A stretch of 64,000 nucleotides of DNA. It comes from Acidobacteriota bacterium (lineage in GTDB: Bacteria; Acidobacteriota; UBA6911; RPQK01; JAJDTT01). The stretch covers positions 4,697,859 through 4,761,858 of the forward strand of contig OZ246889.1 in NCBI GenBank assembly GCA_965231825.1, given 5' to 3'. Under the pieces are notes generated by a model that saw only the letters and a list, made by a program, of their open reading frames with translations, searched no databases and was not told the DNA's origin. Positions 23,150 through 41,714 of the stretch are shown here, piece after piece (the stretch's first letter is position 1; every line of letters starts with the position of its first letter). The translations under genes were made by a program, and so were the position numbers.

Positions 23150-24019
23150 ATGAAGCGGATCGCGATCCTGCCGGCTTTCGTCCTTCTCTCCGGATCCCTG
23201 TTGGCTCAGCAGCGTCCGCTGATCACCGAACCCGCCAGCACCGTTCCCGAAGGAATGACCCGCTTCGGTTTCGGTTTCGAGTACCTCCAAGACGCCACTT
23301 TCCGGCTCTCCGGACTGAAGGGAAACCTCACCCGCGCCGGCATCTGCGATCTGCGCTTTGGCGTCGGACCCAGAGCCGAGCTCCAGATGGGCTGGACCAT
23401 GCAGGATTTTCTCCACATATCCGAGAGGTTCCCGGCTCCCCACACGGAAAGACTCGCGTTCTCGGGCAATTCGACCAGCGACTACGGAGACCTCTTTGTC
23501 GGCTCCAAGGTCCGTTTCCTGGATGAGAAGAACGGTCGGCCGGCAATGGGCCTGCACTTCCTGGCCCAGATTCCCATCGCTTCGAACGAAACCGGCATCG
23601 GAAATGACGTCACGAACATCTTCTCTGCCCTCGTATTGGAGCGGCACTTCGGCCGTCTGAAGAGCTTCATCAATATGGGTCTGGCCCTCCTGGGAGATCC
23701 CTTGGATGCGGCCGCGCAGGATGACCTGGTTTTGTACGGGATCGGGATGGCCTACCCGGTCACTTCCAAGATAAACCTGGTCGGCGATTTCTACGGAAGG
23801 GCCGGTTCCGGCCGTCACACGGGAATCCCGGTGTCACCCGACATCATTGCCAGTCGATCAGGCATCGGGACCGAGCAACAGAAGAGGCTGCGAGTGGCCC
23901 TGCAGATTCGGGTTGGAGGGCTCTATTTGGATGTGGGGGCCTTTGCCGGGTTGCGAGACACGGACCCCTCGTCCGGCGTGGTCTTCGGACTGTCGAAAGA
24001 TTTCAAGTCCCCGTTCTAG
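23150..24019 (+). CDS. hypothetical secreted/outer-membrane protein (signal peptide MKRIAILPAFVLLSGSLLAQ)
   Basis: Start chosen at the internal ATG 23150, which precedes a signal peptide. The C-terminus ends in F (barrel-like). No family recognised. Confidence 0.5.
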   Translation: MKRIAILPAFVLLSGSLLAQQRPLITEPASTVPEGMTRFGFGFEYLQDATFRLSGLKGNLTRAGICDLRFGVGPRAELQMGWTMQDFLHISERFPAPHTERLAFSGNSTSDYGDLFVGSKVRFLDEKNGRPAMGLHFLAQIPIASNETGIGNDVTNIFSALVLERHFGRLKSFINMGLALLGDPLDAAAQDDLVLYGIGMAYPVTSKINLVGDFYGRAGSGRHTGIPVSPDIIASRSGIGTEQQKRLRVALQIRVGGLYLDVGAFAGLRDTDPSSGVVFGLSKDFKSPF

Positions 24020-24178
24020 GAGTCTGCGCCGTAGGAATGATCGTAGCGAGGAAGTGGGGAATCGAGGCCAGATTGACTCGATTTTGAGGTGCATAGTCGT
24101 TCTATTCGCCGAGAAATCGAGGAAATATGGACCGATTCACCGCTTTCGCAGTAGATCAATTTCTGTGGCGCAGGCTCC
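24019..24178. mobile_element. MITE-like 160-bp element, copy A, with ~20-bp terminal inverted repeats
   Basis: ggagtctgcgccgtaggaat...atttctgtggcgcaggctcc. ~95% identical to 40814-40973. Lies between the convergent OMP gene and nrdJ. Confidence 0.7.
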
Positions 24179-24208
24179 TGGCCCGCAAATCTCACCGCGT
24201 CGCCGAAC

Positions 24209-27726: not shown

Positions 27727-29052
27727 CTAAAACAGCAGGCGAGCCAAAACCAACAAGTTGAAGCTGGTGATCGAGAGATACACGTACTGCTGAAAGTGAG
27801 GCCAGCCCTTCCAGGTGCAGCGTCCGACTCCGAAGACTCGCTTGAGCCACGAGATGCAACCTTCGATGCCGGCCCGGAATCTTCGCAGTTGCCGGTAGAC
27901 CCAACTGGAGCGCACCATCTCAGGGACCTTCAGTCCGCGTTTCTTGGCAAAAGCAACGTCTTGGATCCCCTGCTCCTTGGCCCAGTCCAGATTGGAGCGG
28001 CTGGCAAAACAGCCGTCGCAACTGACCTGTCGAGGCCAACGGCCGTACAGATCATGCTGGCGCCGCAGCCAGGGCTGGAACTGAGCGGCATCGTTGGGAT
28101 TCCCCCGCACGATCTCACCATCCAGCATCAGGCCGGAGGCGCCTCCGGTCAGAAACAGCTTGTGCCCAAAGACCGTTTCCCGGCGCTTCTTTTTGATGAT
28201 GTTGGTGTGCTCCTCAAACAGGGAGAGGACTTTCTCATCGGCCGGAACCTTCTCCCCCCGCAGGACCCGACGCTCGGTCTGAGCGATGATCTTGGCCGTC
28301 AAGTCCAAGTAATGGCGTAACTTTCCCGCAATGACCTGACTCGGAAGGTCCGTCCACGGGTCCGCTTGCCGCAGGGCCATCGTGGCGTAATGAGCCGTCT
28401 TGCGAGCGACCTTCAGCAGATCTCGATAGGTCTGCTGCCGACGCTTTCCTCGACGGTTCTTGATCTCCAGACACCGCCGCTTGGCCCGGCGCCGGTGATC
28501 GTGCAAGACGATCTTGTGATGACGGGCCAACCAGCGAAGCAGCCGGGTGAGGACTCGAACCGAGTCGCACAACAACTGGGAATCGGTCGGATAGGGGATG
28601 GGACTTTCCACGGCCGTGGCATCGACTCGAATCTTACGACCCCGTTCCAGCCCCTGGCGGTGGGCCCATTGCACCAGGAGCCGGTTGATCTGCTGCCAGG
28701 TGCCGGCTTGGATACGGCTGATGTTCTCCTGAAGGCAGGAGGCACTGGGGGCCCAGCAAAAGGAAAAACGAGCGAAGCGGCGAAAGCTCTGGGAGTCACT
28801 CAAGAGGAACGCCAACTTGGCGTAGGACAGTTGATGCCACTGCTGGAGGATGGCCGCGCGCAGGACCTGCTCGGCGGAGAGGCCTGGAGCCCCCTGACCG
28901 GAGCTGGCGATGTCACCCAGATCGTGTAGAACCAGATCCAGGATCGAGGGGTTGTCATCCAAGATCTTGGAAACGGCTCTCAGCTCCCGGGCGAGTCGGT
29001 GATCGGGCCAGAGCCCGGAAAGCGGAAGTTGGTTTTCCCGTTTTCGACGCAT
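27727..29052 (-). CDS. DDE transposase, IS4/IS5/IS1182-superfamily-like (441 aa)
   Basis: N-terminal DUF772-like region (LSAEQVLRAAILQQWHQLSYAKLAFLLSDSQSFRRFARF) and a C-terminal DDE-type catalytic region. An imperfect inverted repeat pair lies directly upstream of the start at 29053-29153. Confidence 0.7.
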   Translation of the reverse strand: MRRKRENQLPLSGLWPDHRLARELRAVSKILDDNPSILDLVLHDLGDIASSGQGAPGLSAEQVLRAAILQQWHQLSYAKLAFLLSDSQSFRRFARFSFCWAPSASCLQENISRIQAGTWQQINRLLVQWAHRQGLERGRKIRVDATAVESPIPYPTDSQLLCDSVRVLTRLLRWLARHHKIVLHDHRRRAKRRCLEIKNRRGKRRQQTYRDLLKVARKTAHYATMALRQADPWTDLPSQVIAGKLRHYLDLTAKIIAQTERRVLRGEKVPADEKVLSLFEEHTNIIKKKRRETVFGHKLFLTGGASGLMLDGEIVRGNPNDAAQFQPWLRRQHDLYGRWPRQVSCDGCFASRSNLDWAKEQGIQDVAFAKKRGLKVPEMVRSSWVYRQLRRFRAGIEGCISWLKRVFGVGRCTWKGWPHFQQYVYLSITSFNLLVLARLLF

Positions 29053-29213
29053 GTTTCAAGCCCTCGGTTTTGTGTAAGTCGTTTGTTTGTTTTTGTTTAG
29101 CACCGATAGACTACCAAACGACTATGACAAAACCGGGGCTTGAAAATGCCATCTAACTCCCCATTTTCCAATTACTTACGGGTTTCCGGATGAGAACTAG
29201 TACCCCATAACAC

Positions 29214-29900
29214 TTAAAGCTGTGGATACAGGCTCTTTAGCTTGATCCGTGCATCCTCCGTCTTGAACTGCCAGTCGATCTCGGTTTGCCGTTGGTTCCG
29301 ATCCGCAACCCAAGCCCCGATCTCCCGTTGCATCCCGGCCAGGCTTGGAATCCGCCGGTCCAGGCATTGTCCGCACAGCGCGCTCAATTCGATTTCTGCA
29401 ATGTTGAGCCAACTGCCGTGCTTCGGCGTGTGGTGGATTTCCAGTCGTTGTGCCAGTTGGCGAGCGTGTCGAGGCTCGTAGGTCGCGTACAGCGATTCGA
29501 TTCCGTGCGGGTTCAGGTTGTCCATGACCAGGACCACCCGCTCGGCCTCCGGGTATCGCCTCTCCAGCATGCCCTCGATCCACCGGGCCCAATCCTGTCG
29601 CGTGCGCCGCTCGGCCGCCGCCACATGGCAGCGGCCGGTCAGTGGCTCCACCTCCAGGAAGATCTGCGCGACTCCGTTACGCACGTACTCATGCTCGACC
29701 CGCTGCGGCCGGCCGGGCGCGACCGGCAACGGCTCCCGCACTTCTCCGATCAACTGCTTGTTGGTCTCGTCCATGCAGACCACCGGTCGACGGGGGTCGT
29801 AGGGACGGGCATAGACTTCTAAAACGTCCTCCATGCAGGCTACGAATGCGGCGCTGCCCCGGGGCGGGATCCGCCAGTACTTCTTTCGATGAGGCTGCAA
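29214..29900 (-). CDS. IS630 transposase OrfB (DDE catalytic domain)
   Basis: QPHRKKYWRIPPRGS...VCMDETNKQL...VLVMDNLNPHGIESL...EIHHTPKHGSWLNIAEIELSAL. The Tc1/IS630-type DD(E/D) context is present. Confidence 0.75.
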   Translation of the reverse strand: MQPHRKKYWRIPPRGSAAFVACMEDVLEVYARPYDPRRPVVCMDETNKQLIGEVREPLPVAPGRPQRVEHEYVRNGVAQIFLEVEPLTGRCHVAAAERRTRQDWARWIEGMLERRYPEAERVVLVMDNLNPHGIESLYATYEPRHARQLAQRLEIHHTPKHGSWLNIAEIELSALCGQCLDRRIPSLAGMQREIGAWVADRNQRQTEIDWQFKTEDARIKLKSLYPQL

Positions 29901-30348
29901 TTGGTTTTTTTAACGTCCGCTGCACCGTCATCACCGACACCCGCTCGACCCAGCCCAGTTCCACCACTTTCTCCGCCAACAGGCGCAGCGTCCAGCGCTG
30001 CCGTCCCGGCGGGGCCGGGGAGCAGGCCAAGGCGACCAGGCGGGCCTCGAACGCGCCGTCGAAGATCACTTTCCGCGGCGGCCGCACCCGCCGCTTGCGC
30101 TCCAAGGCGAACTCCAACCCCTGCTCCACAAACCGCCGTTTCAAGTGCTCGATCGTGCGCGCCGAGACGCCCAGCGCCTCGGCCACCCGGGCCACCGTCC
30201 ATCCCGGCCCTTCCGGCCCGCGGTCGCACAACAACAGCGCCCGCGCGTACAGGAACCGCTTGCCGGTGGTCTTGGTCGCGGCCCGGGTCAAGGCCTTCAA
30301 TTCTGTGCGCTCTTCCACAGTGAGCGTGACTCGATAGCGTGGTGCCAT
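29689..30348 (-). CDS. IS630 transposase OrfA (HTH/DNA-binding part); the upstream frame for a programmed frameshift
   Basis: MAPRYRVTLTVEERTELKALTRAA...VARVAEALGVSARTIEHLKRRF...TVQRTLKK ends at the A7 run (T7 on the plus strand at ~29906-29912). Confidence 0.7.
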   Translation of the reverse strand: MAPRYRVTLTVEERTELKALTRAATKTTGKRFLYARALLLCDRGPEGPGWTVARVAEALGVSARTIEHLKRRFVEQGLEFALERKRRVRPPRKVIFDGAFEARLVALACSPAPPGRQRWTLRLLAEKVVELGWVERVSVMTVQRTLKKPIAASSKEVLADPAPGQRRIRSLHGGRFRSLCPSLRPPSTGGLHGRDQQAVDRRSAGAVAGRARPAAAGRA

Positions 30349-30535
30349 GAGAACTCCTCCTTCCGAGTCCTCCAGCCTCTCACCGTAGTATACGAACAAC
30401 TACATGTTATTGGGTACTAGTCTAGTTTCCGAATCCAACCTGAGGGGAAGCGATTCAACGACCGTCTCCAAAAAAATTATTTTGGAAATTGAACGCAGTC
30501 CCAGCCTGAAGACAACAACGTCTCAAAATCGCCAT

Positions 30536-39667: not shown

Positions 39668-40786
39668 TCAGCTCAGGCGTTTCGGCCGCCGCATTTTCGC
39701 CAGTTTCAGATAGAGCTGTTCGGTTTCGTCCAGCTTGCGGTCCAGAGTGAAATTCTCGGCGACCCGCTTGCGCCCGGCTTCCCTCATTCGGCGTCTCAAT
39801 GAGGAGGAAGAGAGCACCTTGGCCAGCGCTTCGGACAACTTGTCCGGCCTTCCGGCGGGGACCAACAGACCCGTACTCCCATCCAACACCAACTCCGGAA
39901 TCCCGCCGACACGCGTGGCCACAACGGGTAGCGGCCGCGCCATTGCAGCGAGAATGGCGGAACTGAGCCCCTCCGACAGCGAGGCCAGACAGAAGACGTC
40001 GAATTCCCGCATCATGGCGTCGCTGTCTTTCCGAAATCCGGTGAACAGGACTCGATCCGCCACCTTCAGGGCGCGAGCCCGCTCCTCCAGCATCTGCCTG
40101 CGCTCCCCGCCTCCGACAAAGACATAGGTCACGTCGGGAAACCTCTCCCGCAACCGGGCCGCGGCCTTCAGCACCGTCACGTGCCCCTTCTCAGGGCTCA
40201 GATGGGCGACGACACCCACGACAAGTCCCGGTCGCACCGGTAGAACCGACGTGAAAGGGTCCCCGTCGACGGACCGCAGGTCCACCCCTTCATAGATCAC
40301 CGAGACCCGCTCCGGCCGCACGCCGTCCTGAACCAGCGTCCTCTGGATACTTTCGGAGACGGTGACGACCCGGTCGAGGAGCCGGTTGTACTTGACGCGG
40401 CTCAACCTGGAGCGCAACGGGAAATTGACTCGCCGGGAAGCGACCAGAATGGGAACTCCGCAGATCCAAGCCGCCATTTTGCCTGCCAGGATCGGGCGGG
40501 GCGTATTGTAGTGGAGTACGTCCACTCTCCCGGGCCCCATAATTCGTGCCAGGCCCCATACCGCCGGAACACTCAGTTCACACCGCTGGGAGAAGCTATG
40601 GGTGGAGATTCCCACAGCTCGAGATCTGTGTGCCAGCGGGCTCCCGGCCGGCGCCGCCAATTCCACGCCGTAGCCCCGTTTTCGGATTCCCACCATCAGA
40701 CTGAAGAGCTGCTCCTGGCCTCCCCGCCAGACGCTCTCCGTATCCACATAGAGGATCCGCAAGGGACGCTTCATGCTATCGATCAC
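39668..40786 (-). CDS. glycosyltransferase family 4 (GT-B, group 1)
   Basis: C-terminal EGLSSAILAAMARPLPVVATRVGGIPELV E-x7-E-like motif. Confidence 0.8.
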   Translation of the reverse strand: MIDSMKRPLRILYVDTESVWRGGQEQLFSLMVGIRKRGYGVELAAPAGSPLAHRSRAVGISTHSFSQRCELSVPAVWGLARIMGPGRVDVLHYNTPRPILAGKMAAWICGVPILVASRRVNFPLRSRLSRVKYNRLLDRVVTVSESIQRTLVQDGVRPERVSVIYEGVDLRSVDGDPFTSVLPVRPGLVVGVVAHLSPEKGHVTVLKAAARLRERFPDVTYVFVGGGERRQMLEERARALKVADRVLFTGFRKDSDAMMREFDVFCLASLSEGLSSAILAAMARPLPVVATRVGGIPELVLDGSTGLLVPAGRPDKLSEALAKVLSSSSLRRRMREAGRKRVAENFTLDRKLDETEQLYLKLAKMRRPKRLS

Positions 40787-40813
40787 CGGCCCGTTTCGGA
40801 TCTGCGGAGGCTA

Positions 40814-40973
40814 GGAGCCTGCGCCGCAGAAATGATCGTAGCGAGAAAGTGGGGAATCGAGGCCAGATTTTCTCGATTTTGAGGTGCATAGTCGTTCTAT
40901 TCGCCGAGAAATCGAGGAAATATGGACCGATTCACCGCTTTCGCAGTAGATTGATTTCTGCGGCGCAGGCTCC
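40814..40973. mobile_element. MITE-like 160-bp element, copy B, with perfect 20-bp TIRs and TA flanks
   Basis: ggagcctgcgccgcagaaat...atttctgcggcgcaggctcc, with TA on both sides (40812-13 and 40974-75). Intergenic between the GT4 and GT2 genes. Confidence 0.75.
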
Positions 40974-41714
40974 TAGCTCCCACAGCTTGAGATATTTGAA
41001 GAATGTGGACACGGCAGAGAGGGCCGAAACGGCCAGCCCGGGAACGCCGTCCTGAAAACCCCGGTGAAGGACGTAATTGCGCAGGAATACCAGCGGGGGA
41101 TAAATCAACAGTTTCACCGGTCCGGCTCGGGCGCCCGAATCGAAATAGTCGGCCGCCGCCAGGTTGGTGAACCGCTCCAACTGCTGCAGATACTCACTCA
41201 GGGAAGCGTAAGTGTAATGGTGCAGATCCCCCGGGAGACGGCCGGTGGACCCGTTGACTCGGAAGGACTCGTGGACTCGCCCCCCCTCCCACCGTCCCGC
41301 GGACCGGAGAAAGAGCCTCATCTGCCAATCGGGATACCAGGTCGTGTGCTCGATCCATCTCCCCAGAAAGAAGGTCTTGCGGCACAGGTAGTATCCGTCG
41401 ATTCCTTCATCCTTCCCCGATTTCCAGCGGCGCACCTCCGCCTGCAGCTCCGGACTCAGAACTTCGTCCGCGTCCAGGCTCAGGACCCAGTCGAAGGAGG
41501 CTTGATCCGTCGCAAACTGCTTCTGGTCGCGGTAGCCGGACCACCTGCGTTGGAGAAATCGATCCGTATAACGACGGCAGATGGCTTCGGTCCCGTCTGA
41601 GCTGAAGGAGTCCACGACCACGATCTCGTCGCTCACGGCGTGGAGGCTGCTCAGGGCAGCATCGATCTTTTCCTCCTCGTTGTAGCAGATGACGACGCCG
41701 GAGAGCTTTCTCAA
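40932..41714 (-). CDS. glycosyltransferase family 2
   Basis: GVVICYNEEEKI...VVVDSFSSDGT GT-A DxD context. The 3' end overlaps MITE copy B by ~40 bp, so the C-terminus and stop may be MITE-derived. Confidence 0.75.
   Translation of the reverse strand: MRKLSGVVICYNEEEKIDAALSSLHAVSDEIVVVDSFSSDGTEAICRRYTDRFLQRRWSGYRDQKQFATDQASFDWVLSLDADEVLSPELQAEVRRWKSGKDEGIDGYYLCRKTFFLGRWIEHTTWYPDWQMRLFLRSAGRWEGGRVHESFRVNGSTGRLPGDLHHYTYASLSEYLQQLERFTNLAAADYFDSGARAGPVKLLIYPPLVFLRNYVLHRGFQDGVPGLAVSALSAVSTFFKYLKLWELGACAAEINLLRKR

Follow-up and report, generated by a model that had tools for sequence, protein, structure and literature searches.

The Correia/NEMIS elements of Neisseria, the ERIC elements and the RUP-type MITEs are about 100-160 bp long, carry terminal inverted repeats (TIRs), use a TA-containing target and form long hairpins. 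They are found at gene ends and inside operons, where they are co-transcribed, and Correia elements additionally carry internal promoters. For the IS1182 family, the literature already contains 160-bp MITEs that duplicate 4 bp: those of Methanosarcina acetivorans, whose partner is the IS1182-family element ISMac2, are present in 14 copies and have inverted repeats of 26 bp and direct repeats of 4 bp (PMC3852290). In the 64-kb stretch of Acidobacteriota DNA analyzed here (the window), a 160-bp repeat occurs twice, and both repeats are very probably copies of a MITE whose ends are recognized by DDE transposases of the IS1182-family clade that includes ISKpn6. Compared by description only, the repeat agrees with the Methanosarcina elements in kind, in its 160-bp size and in the family of the partner, whereas the latter have an archaeal host and are described with neither conservation of the fold nor spread across phyla (PMC3852290). 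Three aspects exceed a routine case: the connection with the ISKpn6 clade, the distribution of related subfamilies over several phyla, and a fold that is conserved and strand-biased. Approximate size, TIRs, a TA-containing target, a long hairpin, and sites at gene ends and in operons are also common to the repeat and the Correia/NEMIS, ERIC and RUP-type elements; in contrast, there is no sequence similarity to them and no match to Rfam or any other family, the internal promoters of Correia elements were not found at copies A and B, and the family of the autonomous partner is identified here. A REP/BIME-type class, raised as a competing assignment in the initial annotation, does not describe the repeat: REP/BIME sequences are imperfect, often clustered palindromes of 20-40 bp associated with a RAYT transposase, whereas this is a 160-bp single-site unit with 20-bp TIRs, CTAG flanks and a DDE partner.

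The two copies (Table 1) align over their full length with 94.4% identity, and the likeness ends at the element boundaries, in agreement with the initial annotation, which had described two 160-bp copies about 95% identical with 20-bp TIRs. The 20-mer GGAGCCTGCGCCGCAGAAAT has four matches in the window at up to 3 mismatches, inverted at both ends of each copy, against 0 expected; the terminus consensus of the element reads GGAG(C/T)CTGCGC(C/G)G(C/T)AG. As had also been recorded, the TIRs of copy B are perfect with TA on either side, and the right flank of copy A is TG. Written out with their neighboring bases, the flanks are cTA-element-TAg for copy B and cTA-element-TGg for copy A, and the palindrome reaches the flanking CTAG. 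The 160-bp element has no coding capacity of its own, the only open reading frames being host frames that run into it, and the nhmmer profile found no third copy in the 64-kb window.

Table 1. Features of the two MITE copies, their neighbors and the elements compared with them; coordinates are those of the window unless a locus is named.
Feature	Coordinates	Strand	Remarks
MITE copy A	24019-24178	+	A-type subfamily, 160 bp; nhmmer profile 116.9 bits
Copy A left TIR, GGAGTCTGCGCCGTAGGAAT	24019-24038	+	3 mismatches against the copy B TIR
Copy A right TIR	24159-24178	-	1 mismatch
Left flank CTAG of copy A (target or duplication)	24016-24019		contains stop codon TAG 24017-24019
Right counterpart of the copy A CTAG	24178-24181		decayed to CTGG
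Gene upstream of copy A	23150-24019	+	289 aa; signal-peptide-like N-terminus; terminates in the TAG that flanks copy A
MITE copy B	40814-40973	+	A-type subfamily, 160 bp
Copy B TIRs	40814-40833 and 40954-40973		perfect, 20 bp
Left flank CTAG of copy B	40811-40814		
Right flank CTAG of copy B	40973-40976		
GT2 glycosyltransferase gene	40932-41714	-	last 13 codons and stop (40932-40973) encoded by the MITE
GT4 glycosyltransferase gene	39668-40774	-	start 157 nt downstream of the new GT2 stop
IS630-family copy	29197-30421		TIR TAGTACCCCATAACA; flanked by CTAG; overlapping ORFs 29214-29900 and 29689-30399
ISNCY-family transposase gene	27727-29052		441 aa; NF033593, 421 bits (cut-off 325)
ISKpn6 (Klebsiella plasmid pKPC_Kp02)	L240 470-2017		MITE terminal sequence; CTAG on both sides
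Halomonas plasmid IS	L241 530-2115		MITE terminal sequence; CTAG on both sides

An IS with matching TIRs, which the initial annotation had envisaged as a parent, exists in more than 20 full-length copies that combine the MITE ends with CTAG flanks (3, 15 and 2 named ones), all of them ISKpn6-like members of the IS1182 family. The first three are elements of 1.55-1.64 kb from a member of the Longimicrobiales (L105), a member of the Terriglobia (L053) and Ca. Foliamicus (L041), each with the MITE termini and CTA/TAG flanks. Their proteins, of 439-455 aa and 67-70% identical to that of L105, carry the Pfam domains DDE_Tnp_1 and DUF772 and score 361-388 bits against NCBIfam NF033551 (IS1182 family; cut-off 270), and the L105-type transposase has thousands of relatives. 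For two transposase relatives, every locus encoding the identical protein was fetched and the copies with both ends readable were scored; all of the 15 further copies of these two IS species, located at unrelated sites, read cTA-GGAGCCTGCGCCGTAG...CTCC-TAg. The nearest named relative in the plasmid collection is ISKpn6 of Tn4401, the blaKPC transposon, with 54% amino-acid identity between the transposases, while the IS of a Halomonas plasmid shows 62%. The ends of ISKpn6, GGAGCCTGCGCGGCAGA and GGAGTCTGCGCGGCAGA, match the A-type MITE consensus GGAGTCTGCGCGGTAGA, and CTAG stands on each side as it does in the MITE; unlike ISKpn6, the MITE is 160 bp long and noncoding, and it has no sequence in common with any recovered IS past the terminal 17-21 bp. 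Since the three elements, the 15 further copies, ISKpn6 and the Halomonas IS all have these ends, the MITE termini are a trait of an ISKpn6-like clade of the IS1182 family. The ends and CTAG target of an IS known mainly from the blaKPC transposon thus characterize a large environmental clade, from which numerous MITEs have arisen in Acidobacteriota, Gammaproteobacteria and further phyla.

The likeness between MITE and IS is confined to these terminal 17-21 bp, where the sequences are identical, and both MITE ends resemble the transposase-proximal (left) end of the IS. None of the recovered IS resembles the A-type interior, so descent from one particular IS is unsupported. A resemblance between the MITE center and the ribosome-binding region of the Terriglobia element L053 was judged coincidental, as other IS copies are without it. 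No ISKpn6-like IS was found in the 64-kb window or in the 8-kb blocks that surround A-type copies. Elsewhere, one IS copy has a C5 DNA methylase gene on one side and a vsr gene on the other (L124 337-3548).

The initial annotation was right in recognizing a MITE with TIRs, and its affiliation with IS630/Tc1 is not supported, the termini being those of the IS1182 family. On an IS630/Tc1-mariner reading, an IS630-family transposase would insert at CTAG and duplicate the central TA. The flanks C-TA-element-TA-G follow such a pattern of TA duplication within CTAG, as do the CTAG target and TA flanks of IS630-derived MITEs; flanks that vary in the outer base (ATAG...CTAG, CTAG...CTAT) are compatible with it, and even fit it slightly better than a 4-bp duplication; the IS630 copy in the window is itself flanked by CTAG, and another IS630 copy, in L032, directly adjoins a MITE end. 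However, the IS630 termini are unrelated to those of the MITE, as the initial annotation had also observed for the window copy, and the latter is split across two overlapping reading frames. Moreover, every transposase gene located between matching termini is of the IS1182 family, and no IS630-family element bounded by GGAGCCTGCGCCG... ends is present among the elements found. The IS630 reading is thereby largely refuted, and we regard it as very improbable. As a separate observation, IS630 copies related to that of the window occur in the Acidobacteriota MAG OZ253580 (L098, 91%; L032, 96%), and in L032 the IS630 end abuts the MITE end, an arrangement that would result if either element had used the CTAG created by the other as its target.

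Among the flanks of the element ends in loci L001-L120, one tetranucleotide predominates: CTAG was read at 84 of 145 ends, CCAG at 25, CTGG at 12 and ATAG at 6. The commonest decayed flank, CCAG, corresponds to a step from CTAGG to CCAGG, the change expected of very-short-patch repair. CTAG itself is strongly depleted in the window: base composition predicts 223 sites and a Markov estimate 52, but there are 21, and six of these 21 sites lie at the ends of mobile elements, three at the MITE copies and three at or beside IS630 ends. TTAA and TATA are likewise very rare in the window. The junction CTAGGAG...CTCCTAG can be parsed either as a 4-bp CTAG duplication around GAG...CTC or as a TA duplication within CTAG around GGAG...CTCC; duplications of 2 bp and 4 bp yield the same string, and the empty site is CTAG either way. 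Among published members of the IS1182 family, for which 4-bp duplications are described, ISPse1 was captured experimentally with a direct repeat of 4 bp (PMC3281130), and ISPsy36 uses the palindromic target GGCC (PMC8027508). The simplest reading of the TA flank is as the middle of a CTAG target, and in view of the published members we lean towards a duplication of 4 bp over one of 2 bp, in which case the element proper would span 24020-24177 in copy A and 40815-40972 in copy B.

Taken together, these features point strongly to a non-autonomous element made up of two TIRs of about 20 bp and an imperfectly palindromic interior. In the proposed mechanism, an ISKpn6-like IS, resident or transient, provides the transposase in trans; this enzyme would bind both ends, excise or copy the element and place it into a CTAG, a very rare tetranucleotide, so that CTAG is then found on either side. 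Copy A would have landed on a stop codon, which the flank keeps intact, and copy B would have landed 12 codons before the end of the GT2 gene, supplying a new tail and stop and pushing the GT4 start away.

The further copies anticipated in the initial annotation turned out to be numerous in other genomes. A scan of one genome per prokaryotic species with the degenerate TIR pattern GGAGYCTGCGCCRYAGRAAT returned at least 120 loci, and the counts derived from it are lower bounds: these loci hold at least 79 short TIR-bounded elements, of which at least 64 are 160-161 bp long. Two groups predominate. The A-type group, with at least 29 copies including both window copies, was found in Acidobacteriota MAGs at 91-99% identity to copy B, while the G-type group, with at least 36 copies, occurs in MAGs of Pseudohongiella and other Pseudomonadales, in one Binatia MAG and in a few other Gammaproteobacteria; the two are alike in termini and length, and their arms cannot be aligned by BLAST. 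A metagenome scan with the same TIR pattern added about 25 elements of 160-162 bp belonging to further subfamilies, whereas a metagenome scan with the A-type central 20-mer gave no match, and neither did a search of the plasmid collection with the element. In all DNA fetched, the profile search recovered at least 117 full-length elements (160-162 bp) with unrelated flanks, originating from marine metagenomes as well as from MAGs of Acidobacteriota, Gammaproteobacteria and Binatia. Clustering at 86% identity resulted in 13 clusters, i.e., at least 13 subfamilies that share termini, length and a central motif.

In the genome OZ253580 alone, 17 A-type copies are present, and their mean pairwise identity of 97.4% suggests a fairly recent amplification. 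Mobility is also visible as insertion polymorphism, since an element present in L099 is missing from the orthologous position in L075. The repeat is noncoding and shorter than about 500 bp, has TIRs, dispersed copies, flank repeats and insertion polymorphism, and shares its ends with an autonomous element, which together are the features by which bacterial MITEs are recognized. Derivatives of 40-66 bp that are devoid of the interior were encountered repeatedly in both the genome and the metagenome scans; they may be in-situ deletions between short repeats. Several other candidates were rejected. TIR pairs 1.1-2.4 kb apart (L048, L120 and L029), considered as possible parents, proved to be separate elements around ordinary genes (nadA-like, Fic-like). 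L117, from a related Pseudohongiella MAG, was likewise rejected as an empty site for the element of L088 (1336-1496), as a TIR remnant is located at 3380-3400 of L117; about 15 bp there resemble the right terminus, and this may be a deletion derivative or possibly an excision footprint.

Copy B provides the clearest view of an insertion. On another contig (L236), an ortholog of the GT2 gene with 92% identity is free of the element, and its stop codon lies 1 nt before the GT4 start; aligned to it, the window has 162 extra nucleotides at copy B. The insertion point is inside the GT2 coding sequence, 12 codons ahead of the native stop, so the initial annotation, which had placed copy B in the intergenic region of the GT4/GT2 operon, correctly sensed a disturbed junction and located it slightly off, the element lying in the 3' coding end of GT2. 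The overrun of the GT2 frame into the element, which it had put at about 40 bp, measures 42 nt. The ortholog in L236 ends with ELAAVDPKRTGDR before its stop, and the window protein ends with the element-encoded ELGACAAEINLLRKR; the native tail, ELASADPKRAGDR followed by a stop, is still readable downstream in the window, as is a remnant of the former GT2/GT4 junction, TAGCATG, at 40772-40779. The GT4 start is now positioned behind the hairpin of copy B. Comparison of the two sequences shows that the insertion of copy B replaced the GT2 C-terminus and parted a tightly joined GT2/GT4 junction; three further assemblies carry this insertion allele. The L236 site reads TTGG where the window reads CTAG, so the duplication is unreadable from this pair. 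On the minus strand of 40814-40976, one frame is open through the entire element and ends at the flanking TAG, and the GT2 frame is closed by a stop codon once 13 codons of MITE sequence have been read. At other elements, 13 called flanking genes extend 15-41 nt into an element.

At copy A, the stop codon of the upstream gene is part of the flanking CTAG, in line with the initial annotation, which had the element begin exactly at that stop; the codon survives the insertion because the first base of the element restores CTAG. No empty site for copy A was found, and the proteins flanking it are without a match on record. The repeat thus accounts for two oddities of the window, a gene that ends precisely at a repeat and a GT2 glycosyltransferase with a foreign 13-residue tail that is parted from its partner.

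Copy A lies between convergent genes, directly past a stop codon, and the initial annotation had accordingly proposed that it might act as a terminator hairpin. More generally, the hairpins could serve mainly as transcription terminators or attenuators for neighboring genes, as they are very stable on either strand, and 12 element flanks adjoin a called gene exactly at its TAG stop (GC3-based gene caller, with a spike at distance 0). However, a terminator scan returned 0 sites at either locus, and no T-run follows the stem on either strand of either copy; copy B moreover lies within an operon, upstream of a gene that presumably still needs to be expressed. The CTAG target itself accounts for the stop-codon placement: in genomes as GC-rich as these, most CTAG sites are TAG stops or lie between genes, so copies come to lie at gene ends. 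When open-frame length ahead of the flanking TAG was compared between the three reading frames, the figures were 29/22/11, which do not stand out clearly from the spurious ORFs that GC-rich DNA produces. A primary role in termination therefore seems quite improbable to us, although either copy might affect the expression of its neighbors. Recognizing the repeat as an IS1182-type MITE guards against its annotation as a terminator or regulatory RNA.

The interior of the element forms one long imperfect hairpin in each copy, instead of the internal sub-palindromes that the initial annotation had reported. The fold is very stable on either strand; for copy B it reaches -102 kcal/mol (z = -11.8) on the plus strand and -83 kcal/mol (z = -10.4) on the minus strand. 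From an alignment of 30 elements drawn from the 13 clusters, RNAalifold derived a consensus of 48 pairs. In these, 96.2% of cells are paired, compared with 80.9% in column shuffles and 33-44% with slid partners, changes on both sides are seen in 28 of the 48 pairs, and none of 500 shuffles matches any of these measures; it follows that the arms have diverged between subfamilies while remaining complementary, through compensatory changes. Full-length elements of all 13 clusters keep to 160-162 bp. Every element can be oriented by asymmetric motifs that are conserved in the alignment: GCGA towards the left end, TTGAGGnGAATA...ACGAAA in the center and GCAG towards the right end. Each of the 30 elements is more stable when folded on the strand that these motifs define (for copies A and B, the plus strand of the window), the mean difference being 18 kcal/mol. 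Counted as cells, G:U exceeds A:C by 122 to 28; the corresponding figures are 75 to 22 for pair-by-cluster combinations and 31 to 13 for pair columns.

Such conservation raises the possibility that the fold is selected for a function in single-stranded form, either as a structured RNA, serving as a small RNA or as a signal for processing or stability, or as a strand-specific DNA hairpin that aids propagation. The covariation across 13 subfamilies, the fixed length with its asymmetric motifs, the consistent strand preference and the excess of G:U all point in this direction, and with regard to the structured RNA suggested by the initial annotation, the fold is strongly conserved by covariation and strand-asymmetric. 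Other observations speak against it: no sigma-70-like consensus promoter was found at the copy A or copy B loci, no Rfam model reached its gathering threshold anywhere in the window (the best sub-threshold model being MIR859 with 22.7 bits against 130), and orientation relative to flanking co-directional genes is 11:11 in a larger set restricted to co-directional contexts. An apparent orientation bias of 60:38, obtained with double counting, was dropped as evidence in view of this figure. Copy B, if transcribed at all, would be transcribed on the weaker strand of its operon, and the recurrence of the short derivatives implies that the interior may be dispensable for persistence. In addition, the arms could have stayed complementary in the absence of selection if quasi-palindromes are corrected by template switching, and the subfamilies share ancestry, which makes the covariation and strand counts non-independent. 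Selection for a single-stranded role is accordingly a tentative idea that we consider unlikely. The narrower version, in which the 160-nt fold is selected on one strand across subfamilies that cross phyla and the element acts as an RNA or as a DNA hairpin promoting DDE mobilization, is to our minds marginally more doubtful still; to our knowledge, neither an element-made RNA nor a strand-specific mobilizing hairpin is known for IS1182/IS5-type elements. If true, strand-specific conservation of the fold would provide a testable case of a MITE whose interior, beyond its ends, is under selection.

Two further features of the window were recorded. Near the ISNCY-family transposase gene, whose ends are unrelated to those of the MITE, a 29-nt inverted repeat is present at 29062-29138 (region 27727-29145). 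Between positions 10000 and 18000, the window has a higher G+C content (0.66-0.68, compared with about 0.61 elsewhere) and a positive GC skew.
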